64,000 bases of DNA from Candidatus Poribacteria bacterium (GCA_965197475.1 CBDANF010000003.1:160001-224000); one strand, 5' to 3'. Shown: positions 43,306-51,482, numbered from the stretch's first letter. Numbers and translations are program-made. The notes: generated by a model from the letters alone, not told the origin.

Positions 43306-44817
43306 ATGATTCCGATGGACACCAAAATTTCCGACGATTTTCCCCCGAAGTTTGCAAAAGAAGGGTTAACTTTTGACGATGTTTTGCTCATTCCCGCAGA
43401 ATCGAGTATTTTACCTGATGAAGTTGATACAAGCACACAGTTGACGCGGAATCTTCGGCTTAATATCCCTATCTGTAGTGCCCCGATGGATACCGTCACC
43501 GAATCTACCCTTGCTATTGCAATTGCGCGGGAGGGTGGTATCGGAATAATTCACTATAACTGTTCTATTGAGGAGCAGGTATCCGAAGTGGATCGTGTGA
43601 AACGTTCAGAAAGCGGAATGATAAGCGATCCGATTACGTTAACGAAGGATAAAACGATCCGGGATGCCCTTGAGATAACCGCTCGTTACCGCATCGGTGG
43701 TGTGCCTATCGTAACTGAGGACGGCCATCTTGTCGGTTTAATTACCAACCGAGACCTCAAATATGAAGATAATCTGGATCTTCCCGTTACTACTCGGATG
43801 ACACCCGCGGATAAATTGATTACCGCATCCCGAGGTGTTACGCTTGAAAAAGCGAAACAGGTGCTTCACAAGCATAGGAAGGAGAAACTGCCAATAGTTG
43901 ATAGCGAATCACGGTTATGTGGGTTGATCACTATCAAGGATATTGACAAGGTGCAGATGTTTCCACACGCTTGTAAGGACGATGCGGGTCGGTTACGTGT
44001 TGGTGCAGCGGTTTTGCCGTCAACACCTCTGGATAACGTTGAATTGTTGGTAAAGGCAGACGTAGATGTGCTTGTGTTAGATACCGCACACGGTCATTCC
44101 AAAAATGTAATTCGGGCAACAGAATATATAAAATCAGAATTTCCGGATATTGAACTTGTCGCAGGGAATGTCGTCACCCCTGAAGCAACGCGAAGCCTGA
44201 TTGATGCGGGGGCGGATGCTGTTAAGGTCGGTGTCGGTCCTGGGTCTATTTGCACAACGCGTGTTGTGGCAGGTGTCAGTATTCCTCAAATCACTGCAAT
44301 TTACGATTGCGCCCAAGAAGCGGATAAAGCCGGTGTGCCAATTATTGCCGACGGCGGTATCCGCTATTCTGGTGACATCGCCAAAGCGATTGGTGCTGGC
44401 GCAAGTTCCGTGATGATTGGTAGCCTCCTTGCTGGTACTGACGAAAGTCCAGGGTCTACAGTTATCTATCAGGGCAGAACATATAAGATTCACCGTGGTA
44501 TGGGTTCATTGGGAGCATTGCGAAAAAGAAACATTGAACTCGGAGAGCAAACAAGTGATGAAGAAATGGCAAAACTCGTGCCACGCGGTATTGAAGGTCG
44601 TGTTCCTCACAAAGGTAAACTGAGCAATTTTGTCTATCAATTGGTGGGTGGGATTCGTTCTGCAATGGGATATTGCGGCACGTCTGATATTGAGTCGTTA
44701 CGCAGAGATGTCCAATTTGTCCGAATGTCAAGCAGCGGTTACCGAGAAAGCCATCCGCACGATATTGATATTACTGAGGAAGCACCGAACTATACGGTCG
44801 CTAACCTGAACACATAA
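43306..44817 (+). CDS. guaB: IMP dehydrogenase
   Basis: [18 protein letters not shown] pair, [31 protein letters not shown]. Confidence 0.97.
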
Positions 44818-44857
44818 ACTATTGAGACTCAGTAAGTCAAGCAAAGGGAGAAAAACG

Positions 44858-45961
44858 ATGAAAATCCGTATTGAAATCCTCACAACTTTACTATTGACGA
44901 CCGTTACTCTGCTCGCTGGCTGCTCTGGCTGCGGACAGAAAACCGCCCCCGAACACGCAGACCCTTATAACCAAGCAGAACACGGACCCGTCGCGGCGAA
45001 TAGCCGAAAGCCCGTAAAACTAACCATTGTTGAACCGAGTTTTGAGAGACTGATAGAACAGTTCAAAGCAGATGTCACTGAAAATAAGGGGGACCCAGAG
45101 ATGCTCAAACGCAAAAGAAAAGCAATTGCCAACCCCGATATACTGTGGGATGGCATCGGATTTGAGGTGCCCCCCACACTAAATTTCGATGAAATCCCAA
45201 GACTGCCGGGCTACAATCCAACACGCGATAAGATAAAAGTCCGCTCTTATTCTGAAAAAGGAAAACCTATACACGGGGTCTATGATCATGACAAAGAAGT
45301 GTATCCTTTTGCGGGCAAAGTTATCTACAAAACAAAAGATCAAGAGGAGAGGTTGGATGCTGTACGGCAAAACTGGAGGCATTTGAATCCAAATTCCGAC
45401 CCAGATGATACTAACTACTATCGAAAACGTGCTCCGATTGTGTATGAGGGAATAGATACACTCATTGCTGCAAAACATCTGAGTCAAGCGTTTAGCCCTG
45501 CTAAAAAAGCTCTTGGCGTTGAATATGCGGAGCGTGCAATACGTGAAAATCCGAACTCTGTTGAAGCGATGCGTATTTGGGTCAAATGCCATCCTGAAGA
45601 TCAAAAGATTGAGGCATACCAACAGCTGCTTTCAAAGTTCCCCAACGATGCGTTTGCTCACGAGCAAATCGCCGGCTACTACTACCGCGAAGAAGATACG
45701 GTTTCCGCCCTGGACCACATGCTGAAGGCTTGTCTGTTAGATAGTCGTATCGCGAAAACGAATGACTTATTAGCCAAATGTTATTTCAAACTCAGTGAAT
45801 GGGAGAAAGCCGTTGCTGCGTATCAGGGCATGGATTATTTTGTCAGTCCGAATTTTCTCTTTGAGAGTCCTGACAAAATAACTAAAGCCAAAGATGAGGT
45901 GCATAAGCAGCGAAAAGGGTATTCAGTTATAGAATTAACACAAGAAGGATATGACAAATGA
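44858..45961 (+). CDS. Variable TPR lipoprotein A1
   Basis: Lipobox LLAG-CSGC; C-terminal TPRs; paralog of A2-A4. Confidence 0.85.
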   Translation: MKIRIEILTTLLLTTVTLLAGCSGCGQKTAPEHADPYNQAEHGPVAANSRKPVKLTIVEPSFERLIEQFKADVTENKGDPEMLKRKRKAIANPDILWDGIGFEVPPTLNFDEIPRLPGYNPTRDKIKVRSYSEKGKPIHGVYDHDKEVYPFAGKVIYKTKDQEERLDAVRQNWRHLNPNSDPDDTNYYRKRAPIVYEGIDTLIAAKHLSQAFSPAKKALGVEYAERAIRENPNSVEAMRIWVKCHPEDQKIEAYQQLLSKFPNDAFAHEQIAGYYYREEDTVSALDHMLKACLLDSRIAKTNDLLAKCYFKLSEWEKAVAAYQGMDYFVSPNFLFESPDKITKAKDEVHKQRKGYSVIELTQEGYDK

Positions 45962-46101
45962 AATATCGCATTTCTGTTTTGACATTGTTTAGTGTGCTGA
46001 ATCCGTCCGCTGCGGATGGTCCACCGAGTGTTTCTATAGAGTCAGCGAATTTGGATGCGTATAATGGGTGGTTACCGAGAAAGCCATCCGCACGATATTG
46101 A
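45958..46101 (+). pseudogene. 5' stub of secreted protein B, type 1
   Basis: MKYRISVLTLFSVLNPSAADGPPSVSIESANLDAYNGWLP, then runs out of frame into the guaB tail. Confidence 0.7.
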
Positions 46102-46150
46102 TATTACGGAGGAAGCACCGAACTATACGGTTGCTAACCTTGCTACATAA
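46070..46150 (+). repeat. guaB 3' tail copy 1 (81 bp, matches 44737-44817); similarity continues through the intergenic spacer
   Basis: Encodes [26 protein letters not shown]. Confidence 0.95.
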
Positions 46151-46190
46151 ACTGTTGAGACTCAGCAAGTCAAGCAAAAGGAGAAAAACA

Positions 46191-49823: not shown

Positions 49824-49967
49824 ATGAAATATCGCATTTCTGTTTTGACATTGTTTAGTGTGCTGAATCCGTCCGCTGCGGATGGTCCACCGAGTGTTTC
49901 TATAGAGTCAGCGAATTTGGATGCGTATAATGGGTGGTTACCGAGAAAGCCACCCTCACGATATTGA
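49824..49967 (+). pseudogene. 5' stub of secreted protein B, type 1 (second copy)
   Basis: Matches 45958-46069 with the same junction. Confidence 0.75.
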
Positions 49968-50016
49968 TATTACGGAGGAAGCACCGAACTATACGGTTGC
50001 TAACCTTGCTACATAA
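49936..50016 (+). repeat. guaB 3' tail copy 3 (81 bp)
   Basis: Same as copy 1 except CAT CCG changed to CAC CCT (both His-Pro). Confidence 0.95.
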
Positions 50017-50056
50017 ACTGTTGAGACTCAGCAAGTCAAGCAAAAGGAGAAAAACA

Positions 50057-51088
50057 ATGGAACTTCGTATAGAAAAGTTCTTAACTTTATTTATGATCGC
50101 GATTATATTCCTCGCGGGTTGTTCGGGGTGTGCACAAAAAAACGCTCTAAAAGGGATTGAACCGACCAAGGATTACAAAGAACAATCAAAATACGGACCG
50201 ATCGCAGCGAACAGTCGCAAACCGGCAAAACTGCCCCCGTTCCCCGAACCGAGTTTCGAAAACCTGATAGAACAGTTCAAAGCGGATGTCGCAGCGAACC
50301 GTGGTAATCCGGGAGCATTGGAACGCAAACGAAAAGCGATTGCTAATCCCAATATTTTAGATTGGCCCTTCTTTGTCTCTGCTGGTGATTACAAAAAAGG
50401 GGAACAACCACTGTCTAAATTATACAGATATGAGACTATCACTATCAAAACAACAGCGGAACAAGAGAAAAGACTGGATGCCTTAAGGTCAGAGGAGCTC
50501 CCATCTGATGTACACAAACGAAAAAGAAACGAGATTTATTTTGGGGGTGTTGATACCCTTACCGCTGCAAAGTATTTTATGACGCGTGGCAGTAGAAATG
50601 CCTCCACCTATGGGGTTGAATATGCCGAGCATGCCATGCGCGAAAATCCAAATTCCGTTGAAGCTATGCACGTCTGGGCGAGATGCAGCAGCAACACTAA
50701 GGACAAAGAAAAGGGAATTGCGGTATTCCGCAAGATGCTGTCCAAGTTCCCGAACGCTGCCGCAGCCCACATTGGACTCGCACAGAATCTCTTTTATCAG
50801 GCTCTGAAGGTTCAAAGGGAGTTTGGTGCTGGTTCTCATATAAATCTTGTGGAAGAAGCACTTCACCACACACAGACAGCGATACAACTTGACAGCCGCA
50901 TCCCACGGTATAACTACTTATTAGCGCGGTGTTATTTTGAACTGGGAGAATGGGAAAAGACGCTTATTGTCTACCATGGAATGCCTTCTATTGGTATGGG
51001 AGCTGCTTTTAATTTGACATTTCAGAGAGCTCATGGAAATCTCGCGAAACAAAGGGGTGAATATTCTCTCTTTAGAGGGACTGAATGA
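50057..51088 (+). CDS. Variable TPR lipoprotein A4
   Basis: N-terminus near-identical to A2, remainder divergent; TPRs. Confidence 0.85.
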   Translation: MELRIEKFLTLFMIAIIFLAGCSGCAQKNALKGIEPTKDYKEQSKYGPIAANSRKPAKLPPFPEPSFENLIEQFKADVAANRGNPGALERKRKAIANPNILDWPFFVSAGDYKKGEQPLSKLYRYETITIKTTAEQEKRLDALRSEELPSDVHKRKRNEIYFGGVDTLTAAKYFMTRGSRNASTYGVEYAEHAMRENPNSVEAMHVWARCSSNTKDKEKGIAVFRKMLSKFPNAAAAHIGLAQNLFYQALKVQREFGAGSHINLVEEALHHTQTAIQLDSRIPRYNYLLARCYFELGEWEKTLIVYHGMPSIGMGAAFNLTFQRAHGNLAKQRGEYSLFRGTE

Positions 51089-51172
51089 TAAAGATGCTCT
51101 CCTCTGCATAATATTTGTGGGCGCAATTTTAATCTATAAACCCATAATAGAAAACAATAATGGATAAACAAT

Positions 51173-51482
51173 ATGAAAAATTATTATCTCACTATTTTAT
51201 TTTTACTGTTTACATCACTCCCGTTTGCCCACGCACAAAACGTCTGTATAGAACCGTTAAATAAAACAGAGTTTAATGCGTGGCTACCTGAAGATGGGGA
51301 CACGGTCACTTTTCTTGTGACCGTCGCAGGTGCCCAATCCACAGGTTCCATCGAGTTAAATCTTACCAATGTATCTACTTGGGAAGGGACATGCATGAAC
51401 AAAGGGACAGGCAACGATGCTGATCTATACTTTACCAGAACAGATCAGGTATTAGCGGGTAGGATTCGTTCTGCTATGGGAT
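51173..51482 (+). pseudogene. 5' stub of secreted protein B, type 2, plus the start of guaB tail copy 4 (51462-51482), cut by IS3
   Basis: MKNYYLTILF...WLPEDGD...DQVLAG-RIRSAMG. Confidence 0.85.

Follow-up and report, generated by a model that had tools for sequence, protein, structure and literature searches.

A recombining family of TPR lipoprotein genes has probably expanded 3' of guaB in a Candidatus Poribacteria bacterium through few joins, which were later copied and reshuffled between diverged lineages. In the window, by which we mean the whole stretch of 64,000 nucleotides that was analyzed, four such genes, A1 to A4, were found directly downstream of guaB by ORF listing, Pfam, self-BLAST and alignments (Table 1). 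Each is preceded by the guaB 3' end or a fragment of it, hereafter termed a tail, a guaB-type stop codon and a 40-bp spacer. Between the genes lie 5' stubs of B, a large FN3 gene, and one IS630 copy, and an IS3 copy is located at the distal end. This order of elements, and the stop codon with a spacer of about 40 bp in front of every A gene, had been claimed in an earlier note on this DNA and were reproduced here. The tail lengths given there were 81, 167, 81 and 21 bp. Both 81-bp tails were recovered, while BLAST changed 167 bp to 178 bp and 21 bp to 32 bp, of which 21 bp are unambiguous. The earlier count of 167 bp starts at GGATT because one of the joins, J2, is ambiguous over about 11 nt.

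Table 1. Features of the guaB array and its surroundings, in window coordinates.
Feature	Position	Strand	Basis
Candidate sigma-70-like promoter, TTGACA-17-TATAAT with TG, upstream of guaB	43042..43070	+	12/12 consensus matches, pattern match only
IS630-type MITE, 161 bp, between guaB promoter motif and guaB RBS	43139..43299	.	Ends pair with those of the IS630 copy (inverted repeats I1 and I2)
guaB (IMP dehydrogenase), intact, 503 aa	43306..44817	+	PF00478, E 4.9e-154, and CBS domains
A1, type I TPR lipoprotein, 367 aa, LAGC lipobox	44858..45961	+	ORF listing, Pfam
Bs1, type-I B 5' stub, ends at J1	45958..46069	+	Alignment
guaB tail, 81 bp, LAT-type end, starts with GGTTACC	46070..46150	+	92.6% identical to 44737-44817
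A2, type II TPR lipoprotein, 369 aa	46191..47300	+	ORF listing, Pfam, tree
Bl1-J2-tail, B 5' part (~90 codons) in frame with last ~58 guaB codons	47312..47758	+	PF00478 on residues 90-130
guaB tail of J2, 178 bp by BLAST	47581..47758	+	BLAST
A3, type I TPR lipoprotein, frameshifted and 3'-truncated	47799..48897	+	ORF listing, alignment
IS630-family element, ~907 bp, transposase in two ORFs	48894..49802	-	PF13358, PF01710; terminal inverted repeats
Bs2, second type-I B stub, ends at J1	49824..49935	+	Alignment
guaB tail, 81 bp, second J1 copy	49936..50016	+	97.5% identical to first J1 tail
A4, mosaic lipoprotein	50057..51088	+	Tree, window identity, codon comparison
Bl2-J2-tail, second J2 copy, tail cut after 21-32 bp	51173..51482	+	Self-BLAST, alignment
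guaB tail, 32 bp by BLAST, 21 bp unambiguous, cut by IS3	51451..51482	+	BLAST
IS3-family element at array end	51483..52727	+	PF01527, PF00665, PF13683

The repeats of the array gave self-BLAST E-values from 1e-61 to 0, far above chance. Positions 44640-45937 were 90.7% identical to 47581-48894, positions 45936-46439 were 95.2% identical to 49802-50305, and positions 47312-47612 were 85.8% identical to 51173-51482. At all four unit boundaries a 5' part of B was found fused to a 3' part of guaB, with unit lengths of 1333 bp and about 2941 bp. The order of the array is (type I - J1 - type II - J2) x2, where I and II denote types of A gene and J1 and J2 the joins; this order and the copy number are those of the assembly alone.

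The guaB gene of the window had 88-91% amino acid identity to guaB of the loci L006 and L012, and its last 81-231 bp are the source of all tails. The promoter-like motif was also present upstream of guaB in L003, where the 161-bp MITE was missing from the equivalent site. The A genes are probably co-transcribed from the predicted guaB promoter, each with its own ribosome-binding site.

The B stubs derive from the 5' end of a gene that encodes a secreted FN3/Ig-like protein of about 1030-1127 aa, and this gene was intact in relatives only. The four window junctions represent two joins only, both 81-bp junctions being J1 and both longer ones J2, in agreement with the two junction types at different guaB positions that had been described before. 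The GGTTACC reported to be common to B and guaB at the first join was verified as a 7-bp microhomology at J1, while the extent of microhomology at J2 is ambiguous, there being no intact parental B of the J2 type to compare. J1 was found twice in the window and three times in L001, the same join with near-identical stubs in 5 of 5 copies, and its units precede type I, type II and a divergent A. J2 was found three times, in two identical copies in the window and in the protein P0038 of another assembly, which matches the Bl1-J2-tail chimera and represents the uncut form of Bl2-J2-tail. Since identical joins occur in different contexts, growth was mostly by homologous recombination and not by serial microhomology joins; with J1 (five copies) and J2 (three copies) each identical by descent, most additions used homology at both sides.

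Relatives differed in A copy number, as the earlier note had expected. L012 and L006 have the order guaB-A-B with a single A, and synteny with the window was also seen upstream in L012. In the close relative L001 (97.5% nucleotide identity over 2.6 kb; chromosome-level record) a different array with at least five A genes was found, and the block that is proximal in the window is distal in L001. At least five more guaB-tail chimeras with other joins were present in the protein collection (P0040; P0045/P0050/P0133; P0046/P0049; P0058; P0056), which brings the distinct guaB-tail joins across the phylum to at least seven. The bacterium, a member of the Poribacteria, is described as a sponge symbiont.

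The tails were proposed to be leftovers of guaB, and their differences, which were overwhelmingly synonymous, indicate that each was once in a working guaB. The first J1 tail differed from guaB by four synonymous and two non-synonymous changes. Synonymous and non-synonymous differences numbered 17 and 4 between guaB and the 231-bp tail of L001, 7 and 3 between guaB and the A3 tail, 13 and 3 between the A3 and L001 tails, and 26 and 3 between guaB and the L009 tail. For these four pairs the binomial P was 2e-3 to 3e-14 assuming two neutral branches and 2.5e-2 to 1e-9 assuming one, the values not being independent as the pairs are short (81-228 nt) and have shared ancestry. Tails were compared directly with the guaB of their own genome in the window only. 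An indel was found in one of nine examined tails of at least 81 bp (the L001 tail near 4121). The tails thus appear to have diverged within working guaB alleles and to be young as pseudogenes, which fits input from diverged lineages. Such synonymous-dominated divergence points to diverged guaB input and fits exchange at the join or later alike. One L001 tail was a hybrid, with a 5' part like that of J1 tails and a 3' part and spacer like those of type-I tails, and therefore indicates a crossover inside an 81-bp tail.

The A proteins have a lipoprotein signal and a TPR fold, and the AlphaFold model of A2 had a mean pLDDT of 87. In the tree, A1/A3, A2 and A4 fell into three starred clades, all of which also contained sequences of other genomes; A1 grouped with L001 b and c. 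A2 had 99% amino acid identity to L001 10001-11107. A3 is broken by a 1-nt insertion near 48236 and has lost its last ~7 codons to IS630, and with an X at the break it was 99% identical to P0026. A4 is identical to A2 over its first 40 codons and also shares tail and spacer with it, whereas the remainder is type III and had 83% amino acid identity to the lone guaB-adjacent A of L012. A1 and A3 differed at no position in codon columns 0-115, at 91 in columns 115-245 and at three in columns 245-402, and the variable block of A3 was 93-100% identical per 60-nt window to that of L009, a different species. Synonymous differences amounted to 0.63-0.82 per site between A types. Omega was 0.1-0.6 for A, with none above 1 in the blocks tested. 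The A types therefore seem to be old and common to other taxa rather than products of rapid mutation, and the array would represent several divergent alleles of a predicted surface lipoprotein.

Segmental gene-conversion families of surface proteins, such as pilE/pilS and vlsE, have one expression site and truncated, promoterless donors. The A genes resemble these in their sharp mosaic blocks among arrayed paralogues of a family predicted to be surface-exposed. They differ in that no single expression site with such donors is present: the four A copies are full length with a common spacer and RBS, apart from the breakage of A3 by mutation. In addition, the divergence of the A variable blocks is old (about 0.4 synonymous differences per site) and not made in situ.

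According to the earlier note each cassette was added beside guaB by a homologous crossover in guaB at one end and a fresh microhomology join at the other, so that the array would be polar and its newest cassette the one closest to guaB. In natural transformation, homology-facilitated illegitimate recombination combines a one-sided homologous anchor with a join at a few-base microhomology, and would give exactly the product guaB-Anew-Bstub-tail-Aold. The microhomology at J1 and the mark of foreign working guaB alleles on the tails both fit this proposal, and the variety of joins across the phylum indicates that illegitimate joins recur. The type of A4 is moreover guaB-adjacent in L012 and distal in the window, as a polar model predicts. 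However, a new join per event is not what was found, since two joins serve the four junctions, each of them recurring in other assemblies, and J1 units precede three different kinds of A. The twofold periodicity would require alternating donors, and the shared block that is proximal in one array and distal in the other gives no clear polarity. Microhomology and foreign input therefore stood, the fresh join per cassette did not, and we regard serial addition of this kind as unlikely. Nor is one-by-one proximal addition the simplest history, as a block duplication superimposed on an earlier one would explain the order (type I - J1 - type II - J2) x2 more simply. Between the two copies of a duplicated block divergence should be even, whereas identity per 60-nt window between the paired copies A1/A3 and A2/A4 ranged from 100% down to 27%, and further recombination has to be invoked. 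A possible alternative to block duplication is that ready-made units were inserted next to guaB one after another.

Tandem duplication and amplification proceed by a novel join point followed by unequal crossing-over. The array is similar in its nested head-to-tail units, in which a distal end is joined to a proximal start at a short microhomology, and in that copy number differs among relatives while the join is common (J1 twice in the window and three times in L001; single A in L012 and L006). Pure in situ duplication with slow divergence and no foreign input, the tails being kept by a regulatory role or by gene conversion from the resident guaB, would account for this structure. It also agrees with the finding that 12 of the last 20 degenerate guaB codons were invariant at synonymous sites across three species, compared to 34% overall, so that a nucleotide-level constraint on the guaB 3' end could add to tail conservation, and with the conservation of the spacer before A genes even where no tail is present. 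Regulatory constraint or gene conversion should reduce divergence as a whole, but would not make the remaining differences synonymous, and tails of different joins (A3 and L001) differ in the same manner. A types predate species splits, whereas tails do not, the variable A block is near-identical across species, and a pattern search found no sigma-70 consensus promoter inside the guaB tails. Copies in the array are patchy, with identities per 60-nt window between 100% and about 40-65%, rather than near-identical, which together with the synonymous tail differences argues for exchange with diverged lineages superimposed on duplication, and makes a purely local origin rather improbable.

An assembly artefact, with guaB-A-B alleles of co-existing strains stitched in tandem, is very improbable. 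The source is evidently a metagenome-derived genome, the units are alike enough to confuse an assembler, and the single-base frameshift of A3 could be a sequencing error. However, the joins between B stubs and guaB share only about 7 bp, so an assembler could not create them from reads that lack them. An independent chromosome-level record contains J1 three times, J2 is present in another assembly, and the chimeric protein of the window is listed on a 4.17-Mb contig.

Compared to the A1-Bs1 junction, the IS630 copy is cleanly inserted. The IS3 element had no matching target-site duplication when both ends were read, and its right inverted repeat was imperfect as judged by eye. The absence of an integrase and of a fixed att noted earlier was borne out. 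In the 28 window ORFs scanned with Pfam from 33.8 to 61.3 kb, the sole recombination enzymes detected were the transposases of IS630 (DDE_3) and IS3 (rve), with no tyrosine or serine recombinase, and no site-specific recombinase was found in the scanned ORFs of L001, L006 and L009. Joins in the window, L001, L009 and the database chimeras were located at guaB codons ~421, 428, 429, 443, 446, 463 and 477, with no fixed att core. Integrase-borne islands insert in the 3' end of conserved genes such as tRNA genes and guaA. Although the repeated 3' fragments of a conserved gene that bound the inserted genes have the look of tandem island accretion, insertion of cassettes by a site-specific integrase at an att in the guaB 3' end is hardly conceivable, as neither an integrase nor a common core was found in the ORFs and joins examined, the join position varies, and the right-hand partner of each join is the truncated gene B and not an element end.

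For the preferred reading, few joins later copied and reshuffled, the anatomy of the locus suggests that the ancestral order was guaB-A-B, which is that of L012 and L006. On rare occasions, illegitimate recombination at a short microhomology would have fused a 5' piece of B to a point within the last ~80 codons of guaB, and every such join would create a unit, arranged head to tail, that consists of guaB tail, spacer, A and B stub. The same product would arise whether a tandem duplication took place in situ or foreign DNA was inserted by one-sided homology, and the product alone does not distinguish the two. As identical joins in different contexts show, the tail, spacer and conserved A 5' end then serve as portable homology, by which units are copied, lost, moved and inserted through ordinary homologous recombination, the two-gene block (type I - J1 - type II - J2) being present at least twice in the window. 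Segments of A and whole tails are swapped between diverged lineages, and this exchange accounts for both the sharp A mosaics and the almost exclusively synonymous differences between the tails and the resident guaB. IS630 and IS3 arrived later, damaging A3 and cutting off the array.

The closest analogue of the guaB array appears to be the rhs 'C-terminal displacement' arrays. In the part of Jackson et al. (2009; PMC2935791) that deals with rhs/CDI displacement arrays, a variable module lies behind a conserved sequence, and more modules come after it, each behind a partial copy of that sequence, with copies that vary in length. The fragments are described as close to the upstream full copy and the modules as dissimilar, of old types that are found in other taxa, with some displaced copies frameshifted; the proposed model is that exogenous modules are inserted by homologous recombination and displace the incumbent (PMC2935791). 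Compared to that description, the guaB array likewise has partial guaB copies before downstream modules (81, 178, 81 and 21-32 bp in the window, about 231 bp in L001), old module types shared with other taxa and a frameshifted A3. It differs from the rhs arrays so described in that the anchor is the unrelated housekeeping gene guaB and not the core of the variable protein, so that displaced A genes stay complete with their own start and RBS. Its modules consist of separate genes for TPR lipoproteins instead of toxin-immunity pairs or C-terminal toxin tips. Units of the guaB array also end in the truncated neighbour gene B, which points to duplication joins, and identical joins recur.

More tentatively, the guaB 3' end and spacer may act as a universal docking site for lipoprotein cassettes that are exchanged across the phylum from a common pool. 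Units of guaB tail, A and B stub would leave arrays, possibly as circles, move from one Poribacteria lineage to another and enter any guaB end or tail again through a single homologous crossover. If so, these symbionts would assemble and rearrange their sets of surface TPR lipoproteins with no dedicated recombinase, and rhs-like displacement would have moved onto a housekeeping gene, in the service of host- or phage-facing surface diversity.

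The region 43-53 kb of the window contains an intact guaB gene, followed on its 3' side by four TPR lipoprotein genes, A1 to A4, with products of ~343-369 aa each. The A genes are separated by 5' pieces of a large FN3 gene, B, and each of these B stubs is fused to a copy of the guaB 3' end; no copy of B in the window is intact. The leftover guaB fragments, or tails, measure 81, 178, 81, and 21-32 bp, and after each come the guaB stop codon, a 40-bp spacer and the next A gene. The array order described in the earlier note was correct, with self-BLAST E-values of 1e-61 to 0, far beyond chance.

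Features of the guaB-lipoprotein array (window coordinates)
Feature	Position	Details
guaB, intact, IMPDH	43306-44817	E 4.9e-154
A1	44858-45961	L-A-G-C lipobox and C-terminal TPR repeats
A2	46191-47300	L-A-G-C lipobox and C-terminal TPR repeats
A3	47799-48897	L-A-G-C lipobox and C-terminal TPR repeats
A4	50057-51088	L-A-G-C lipobox and C-terminal TPR repeats
IS630-family copy	~48894-49802	After A3; 907 bp, transposase split over two ORFs
IS3-family copy	51483-~52727	Terminates the array

The self-BLAST matches were nested: 44640-45937 matched 47581-48894 (90.7%), 45936-46439 matched 49802-50305 (95.2%), and 47312-47612 matched 51173-51482 (85.8%). The tail and 5' region of A matched at ~73-76% between adjacent units. 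With the A genes divided into type I (A1, A3), type II (A2) and type III (the body of A4), and the B-stub/guaB joins into J1 and J2, the nested pattern amounts to two rounds of (type I A - J1 - type II A - J2), after which a third unit begins and is cut by the IS3 copy. The right inverted repeat of this element is imperfect and it has no matching target-site duplication, and the distal part of the array was therefore probably lost through an IS-linked deletion. The IS630 copy removes ~7 final codons of A3, which also carries a 1-nt insertion near 48236 relative to the related loci L001 and L009; A3 is thus a pseudogene. Intact, near-identical alleles of A3 exist elsewhere (database proteins P0025 and P0026). 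In the LAT-type tails (46068-47300 and 49934-51088) an alternative frame is open and runs on into A2 and A4, giving ORFs with a GTG start that are 41 codons longer, and the annotated lengths of several database relatives (399-506 aa) may include such an extension.

A 161-bp MITE at 43139-43299, with terminal inverted repeats resembling those of the IS630 copy, was found inserted at a TA between the guaB ribosome-binding site and a candidate guaB promoter (43042-43070, a consensus match only). In the related locus L003 the same promoter-to-RBS stretch is present without the MITE. The promoter scan gave no consensus promoter in tails or spacers, with 21 promoter-like sites seen and 14.9 expected, and there was no excess of terminators (6 terminator-like sites seen, 8.9 expected). 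The hits of an Rfam scan of 42.5-53 kb (E up to 1) were four, to eukaryotic families of miRNA or lncRNA; none reached its gathering score, and all were regarded as noise. Beyond the array, the minus strand encodes an apparently split beta-lactamase-fold (PF00144) gene (53018-54243; overlapping ORFs 53302-54243 and 53018-53344) and a protein of 364 aa in which a TIR_2 domain at the N terminus (E 1.8e-16) precedes numerous TPR repeats (55756-56850).

Both 81-bp junctions represent one join, J1, in which a B stub ending ...AATGGGTGGTTACC enters guaB at 44737. The motif GGTTACC is found in both parents, B and guaB, so the microhomology join reported in the earlier note does exist. The two longer junctions likewise represent one join, J2, where a longer B stub enters guaB near 44640 in frame, producing a 148-aa chimeric ORF (47312-47758). 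Relatives have intact B genes, whose secreted products of 1030-1127 aa contain FN3 and He_PIG domains. The J1 copies number five, two in the window and three in L001, and all share one join, with near-identical stubs. When the J2 chimera was used as query, the matches included P0038, from another assembly, an uninterrupted version of the distal J2 ORF of the window, and at least five further guaB-tail chimeras whose joins differ. The recurrence of J1 and these chimeras show that the guaB-tail phenomenon is real, recurs across the phylum and varies between genomes. The joins differ in position, with no fixed site, and no integrase was present among the ORFs scanned in the window and the relatives' loci, in agreement with the earlier note, which saw neither an integrase nor an att site.

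Few proteins belong to the A family: a search of 5.8 billion cluster representatives gave 36 at E ≤1e-3 (35 of them at ≤4e-54), none of them named, and all 18 loci from species-representative genomes belonged to Candidatus Poribacteria or unclassified MAGs. The comparison of relatives proposed in the earlier note showed that arrays vary between genomes. L012, on a 5.4-Mb chromosome sharing upstream synteny with the window, has the order oxidoreductase-guaB-A-B with one A, and in L006 the order is guaB-A-B, with B intact at 1127 aa. L001, on the 6.07-Mb chromosome of a close relative, is 97.5% identical to window 44737-47331 in nucleotides, with A2 99% identical in aa, and its array differs: two tails of ~231 bp mark a third join (J3), J1 occurs three times, the A genes number at least five, more distant TPR lipoprotein genes are also present, and B contains an IS. 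L009 keeps the downstream synteny (B, ferredoxin, MT-A70, and a 919-aa ORF), with only a 225-bp guaB tail upstream.

Further observations were made at these loci. A DDE transposase gene of L001 (11195-12166, minus strand) splits B after its first ~20 nt, and dense short inverted and direct repeats, MITE-like, lie on both sides of that array (1-1570 and 12440-14745). In L001 (OZ244616.1) intact guaB was absent from the 2.6 kb before the first tail, and its flanks matched nothing in the window. In L009 (9733-12506) the tail starts within ~5 nt of the J3 join and the DNA upstream of it is unrelated (ABC transporter genes); behind the tail come a type I A, then a B-like stub that runs directly into a second A with no tail between them, and finally an intact B. 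In L003 (1-1740) a type-II-like A and a B stub precede the guaB promoter, with direct repeats of ~55 nt, made of guaB-upstream sequence, on either side of the pair, an arrangement that we read as one further kind of rearrangement at the locus. Compared with the syntenic L012, the window has ~7 kb of extra DNA (33400-40500) and an LVIVD-repeat gene (41759-42979) between guaB and the upstream genes common to both.

Identity of the tails to guaB is 87-97.5%, and the differences are nearly all synonymous. Synonymous and non-synonymous differences numbered 17 and 4 between guaB and the L001 231-bp tail, 7 and 3 between guaB and the A3 tail, 13 and 3 between the A3 and L001 tails, and 26 and 3 between guaB and the L009 tail, while a dead fragment evolving neutrally is expected to gain ~3.4 non-synonymous changes per synonymous one. 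In binomial tests of these four pairs, which are short and not independent of each other, two neutral branches were rejected with P 2e-3 to 3e-14 and one neutral branch with P 2.5e-2 to 1e-9. A nucleotide-level constraint test of the last 20 degenerate guaB codons gave a modest excess only. The predominance of synonymous changes indicates that the tail divergence arose within the ends of working guaB genes. The tails are thus recent captures from different guaB alleles, and DNA has moved between diverged lineages.

The A genes point the same way. The types are old: A1/A3, A2, and A4 belong to three well-supported clades that all include members from other genomes, and at 0.63-0.82 synonymous differences per site the divergence between types is at least as great as that between the guaB genes of different species (0.61-0.70). 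A1 and A3 show 0, 91, and 3 differences across three successive blocks, and over the variable block A3 has 93-100% identity to L009, from a different species. A4 carries the tail, spacer and first 40 codons of A2 on a type III body with 83% aa identity to the single guaB-adjacent A of L012, although DNA identity between the guaB genes of the window and L012 is only 80%. Like the tails, such mosaics show movement of DNA between diverged lineages, and the involvement of foreign alleles implied by the model in the earlier note is borne out by both. The non-synonymous/synonymous rate ratio, omega, was 0.1-0.6 in the tested A blocks, arguing that the variation was imported and not made by hypermutation. 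A diversity-generating retroelement or other in situ hypermutation was dropped, since the variable blocks have old synonymous divergence (~0.4 per site) with omega 0.2-0.6; no reverse transcriptase was found among the ORFs scanned. The AlphaFold model of A2 (mean pLDDT 87) combines a TPR superhelix with a small alpha/beta part at the N terminus. It matched only generic TPR proteins in the PDB (query-normalised TM-scores ≤0.36), and a protein-atlas search gave generic TPR clusters only; no specific function emerged.

Identical joins recur, and they precede differing A types (type I, type II, the II/III mosaic and a divergent A). The illegitimate joins must therefore have been rare founding events, and spread of the units homologous. 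The earlier note had proposed a fresh microhomology join for each cassette, which is not supported, as the four junctions are two joins reused before different A types; its claim that each A once lay directly behind a guaB gene agrees with the tail, stop codon and spacer before each. One L001 tail is a hybrid of the J1 tail and the type-I tail, so a crossover fell inside the 81 bp. The periodic order is read more simply as a block duplication, and serial insertion of ready-made units next to guaB may also account for it; the block copies have diverged unevenly, so that extra recombination has to be assumed whichever model is taken. Each founding join may stem from in situ tandem duplication or from one-sided-homology insertion, which give identical products. 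In the mechanism we propose, a few duplication joins would make the end of an essential, conserved gene, guaB, into portable homology, and recombination between lineages would then diversify the A family.

The nearest described architecture is the rhs C-terminal displacement array. Passages of PMC2935791 describe partial core copies of varying length before dissimilar, old, laterally shared tips. At the present locus, in contrast, the anchor lies outside the variable protein, in a housekeeping gene; each module is a complete lipoprotein gene, and duplication joins form the right-hand ends. Because of these three differences the locus was classified as working like a displacement or tandem-duplication array, and not as a member of the rhs family. 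A literature search that included Poribacteria and guaB found no description of a guaB-lipoprotein locus.

Poribacteria are dominant, uncultivated sponge symbionts. TPR and FN3 proteins are abundant in them and, in the passages of PMC3909097 dealing with such 'eukaryote-like' proteins, are suspected of a role in host contact or interaction. The synonymous-only signature in gene remnants provides a simple, general test to separate old local duplication from import from another lineage. The locus shows a route by which a TPR lipoprotein family can diversify and, if cassette exchange is true, the rhs-type displacement principle would extend past toxins to surface lipoproteins anchored on a housekeeping gene.
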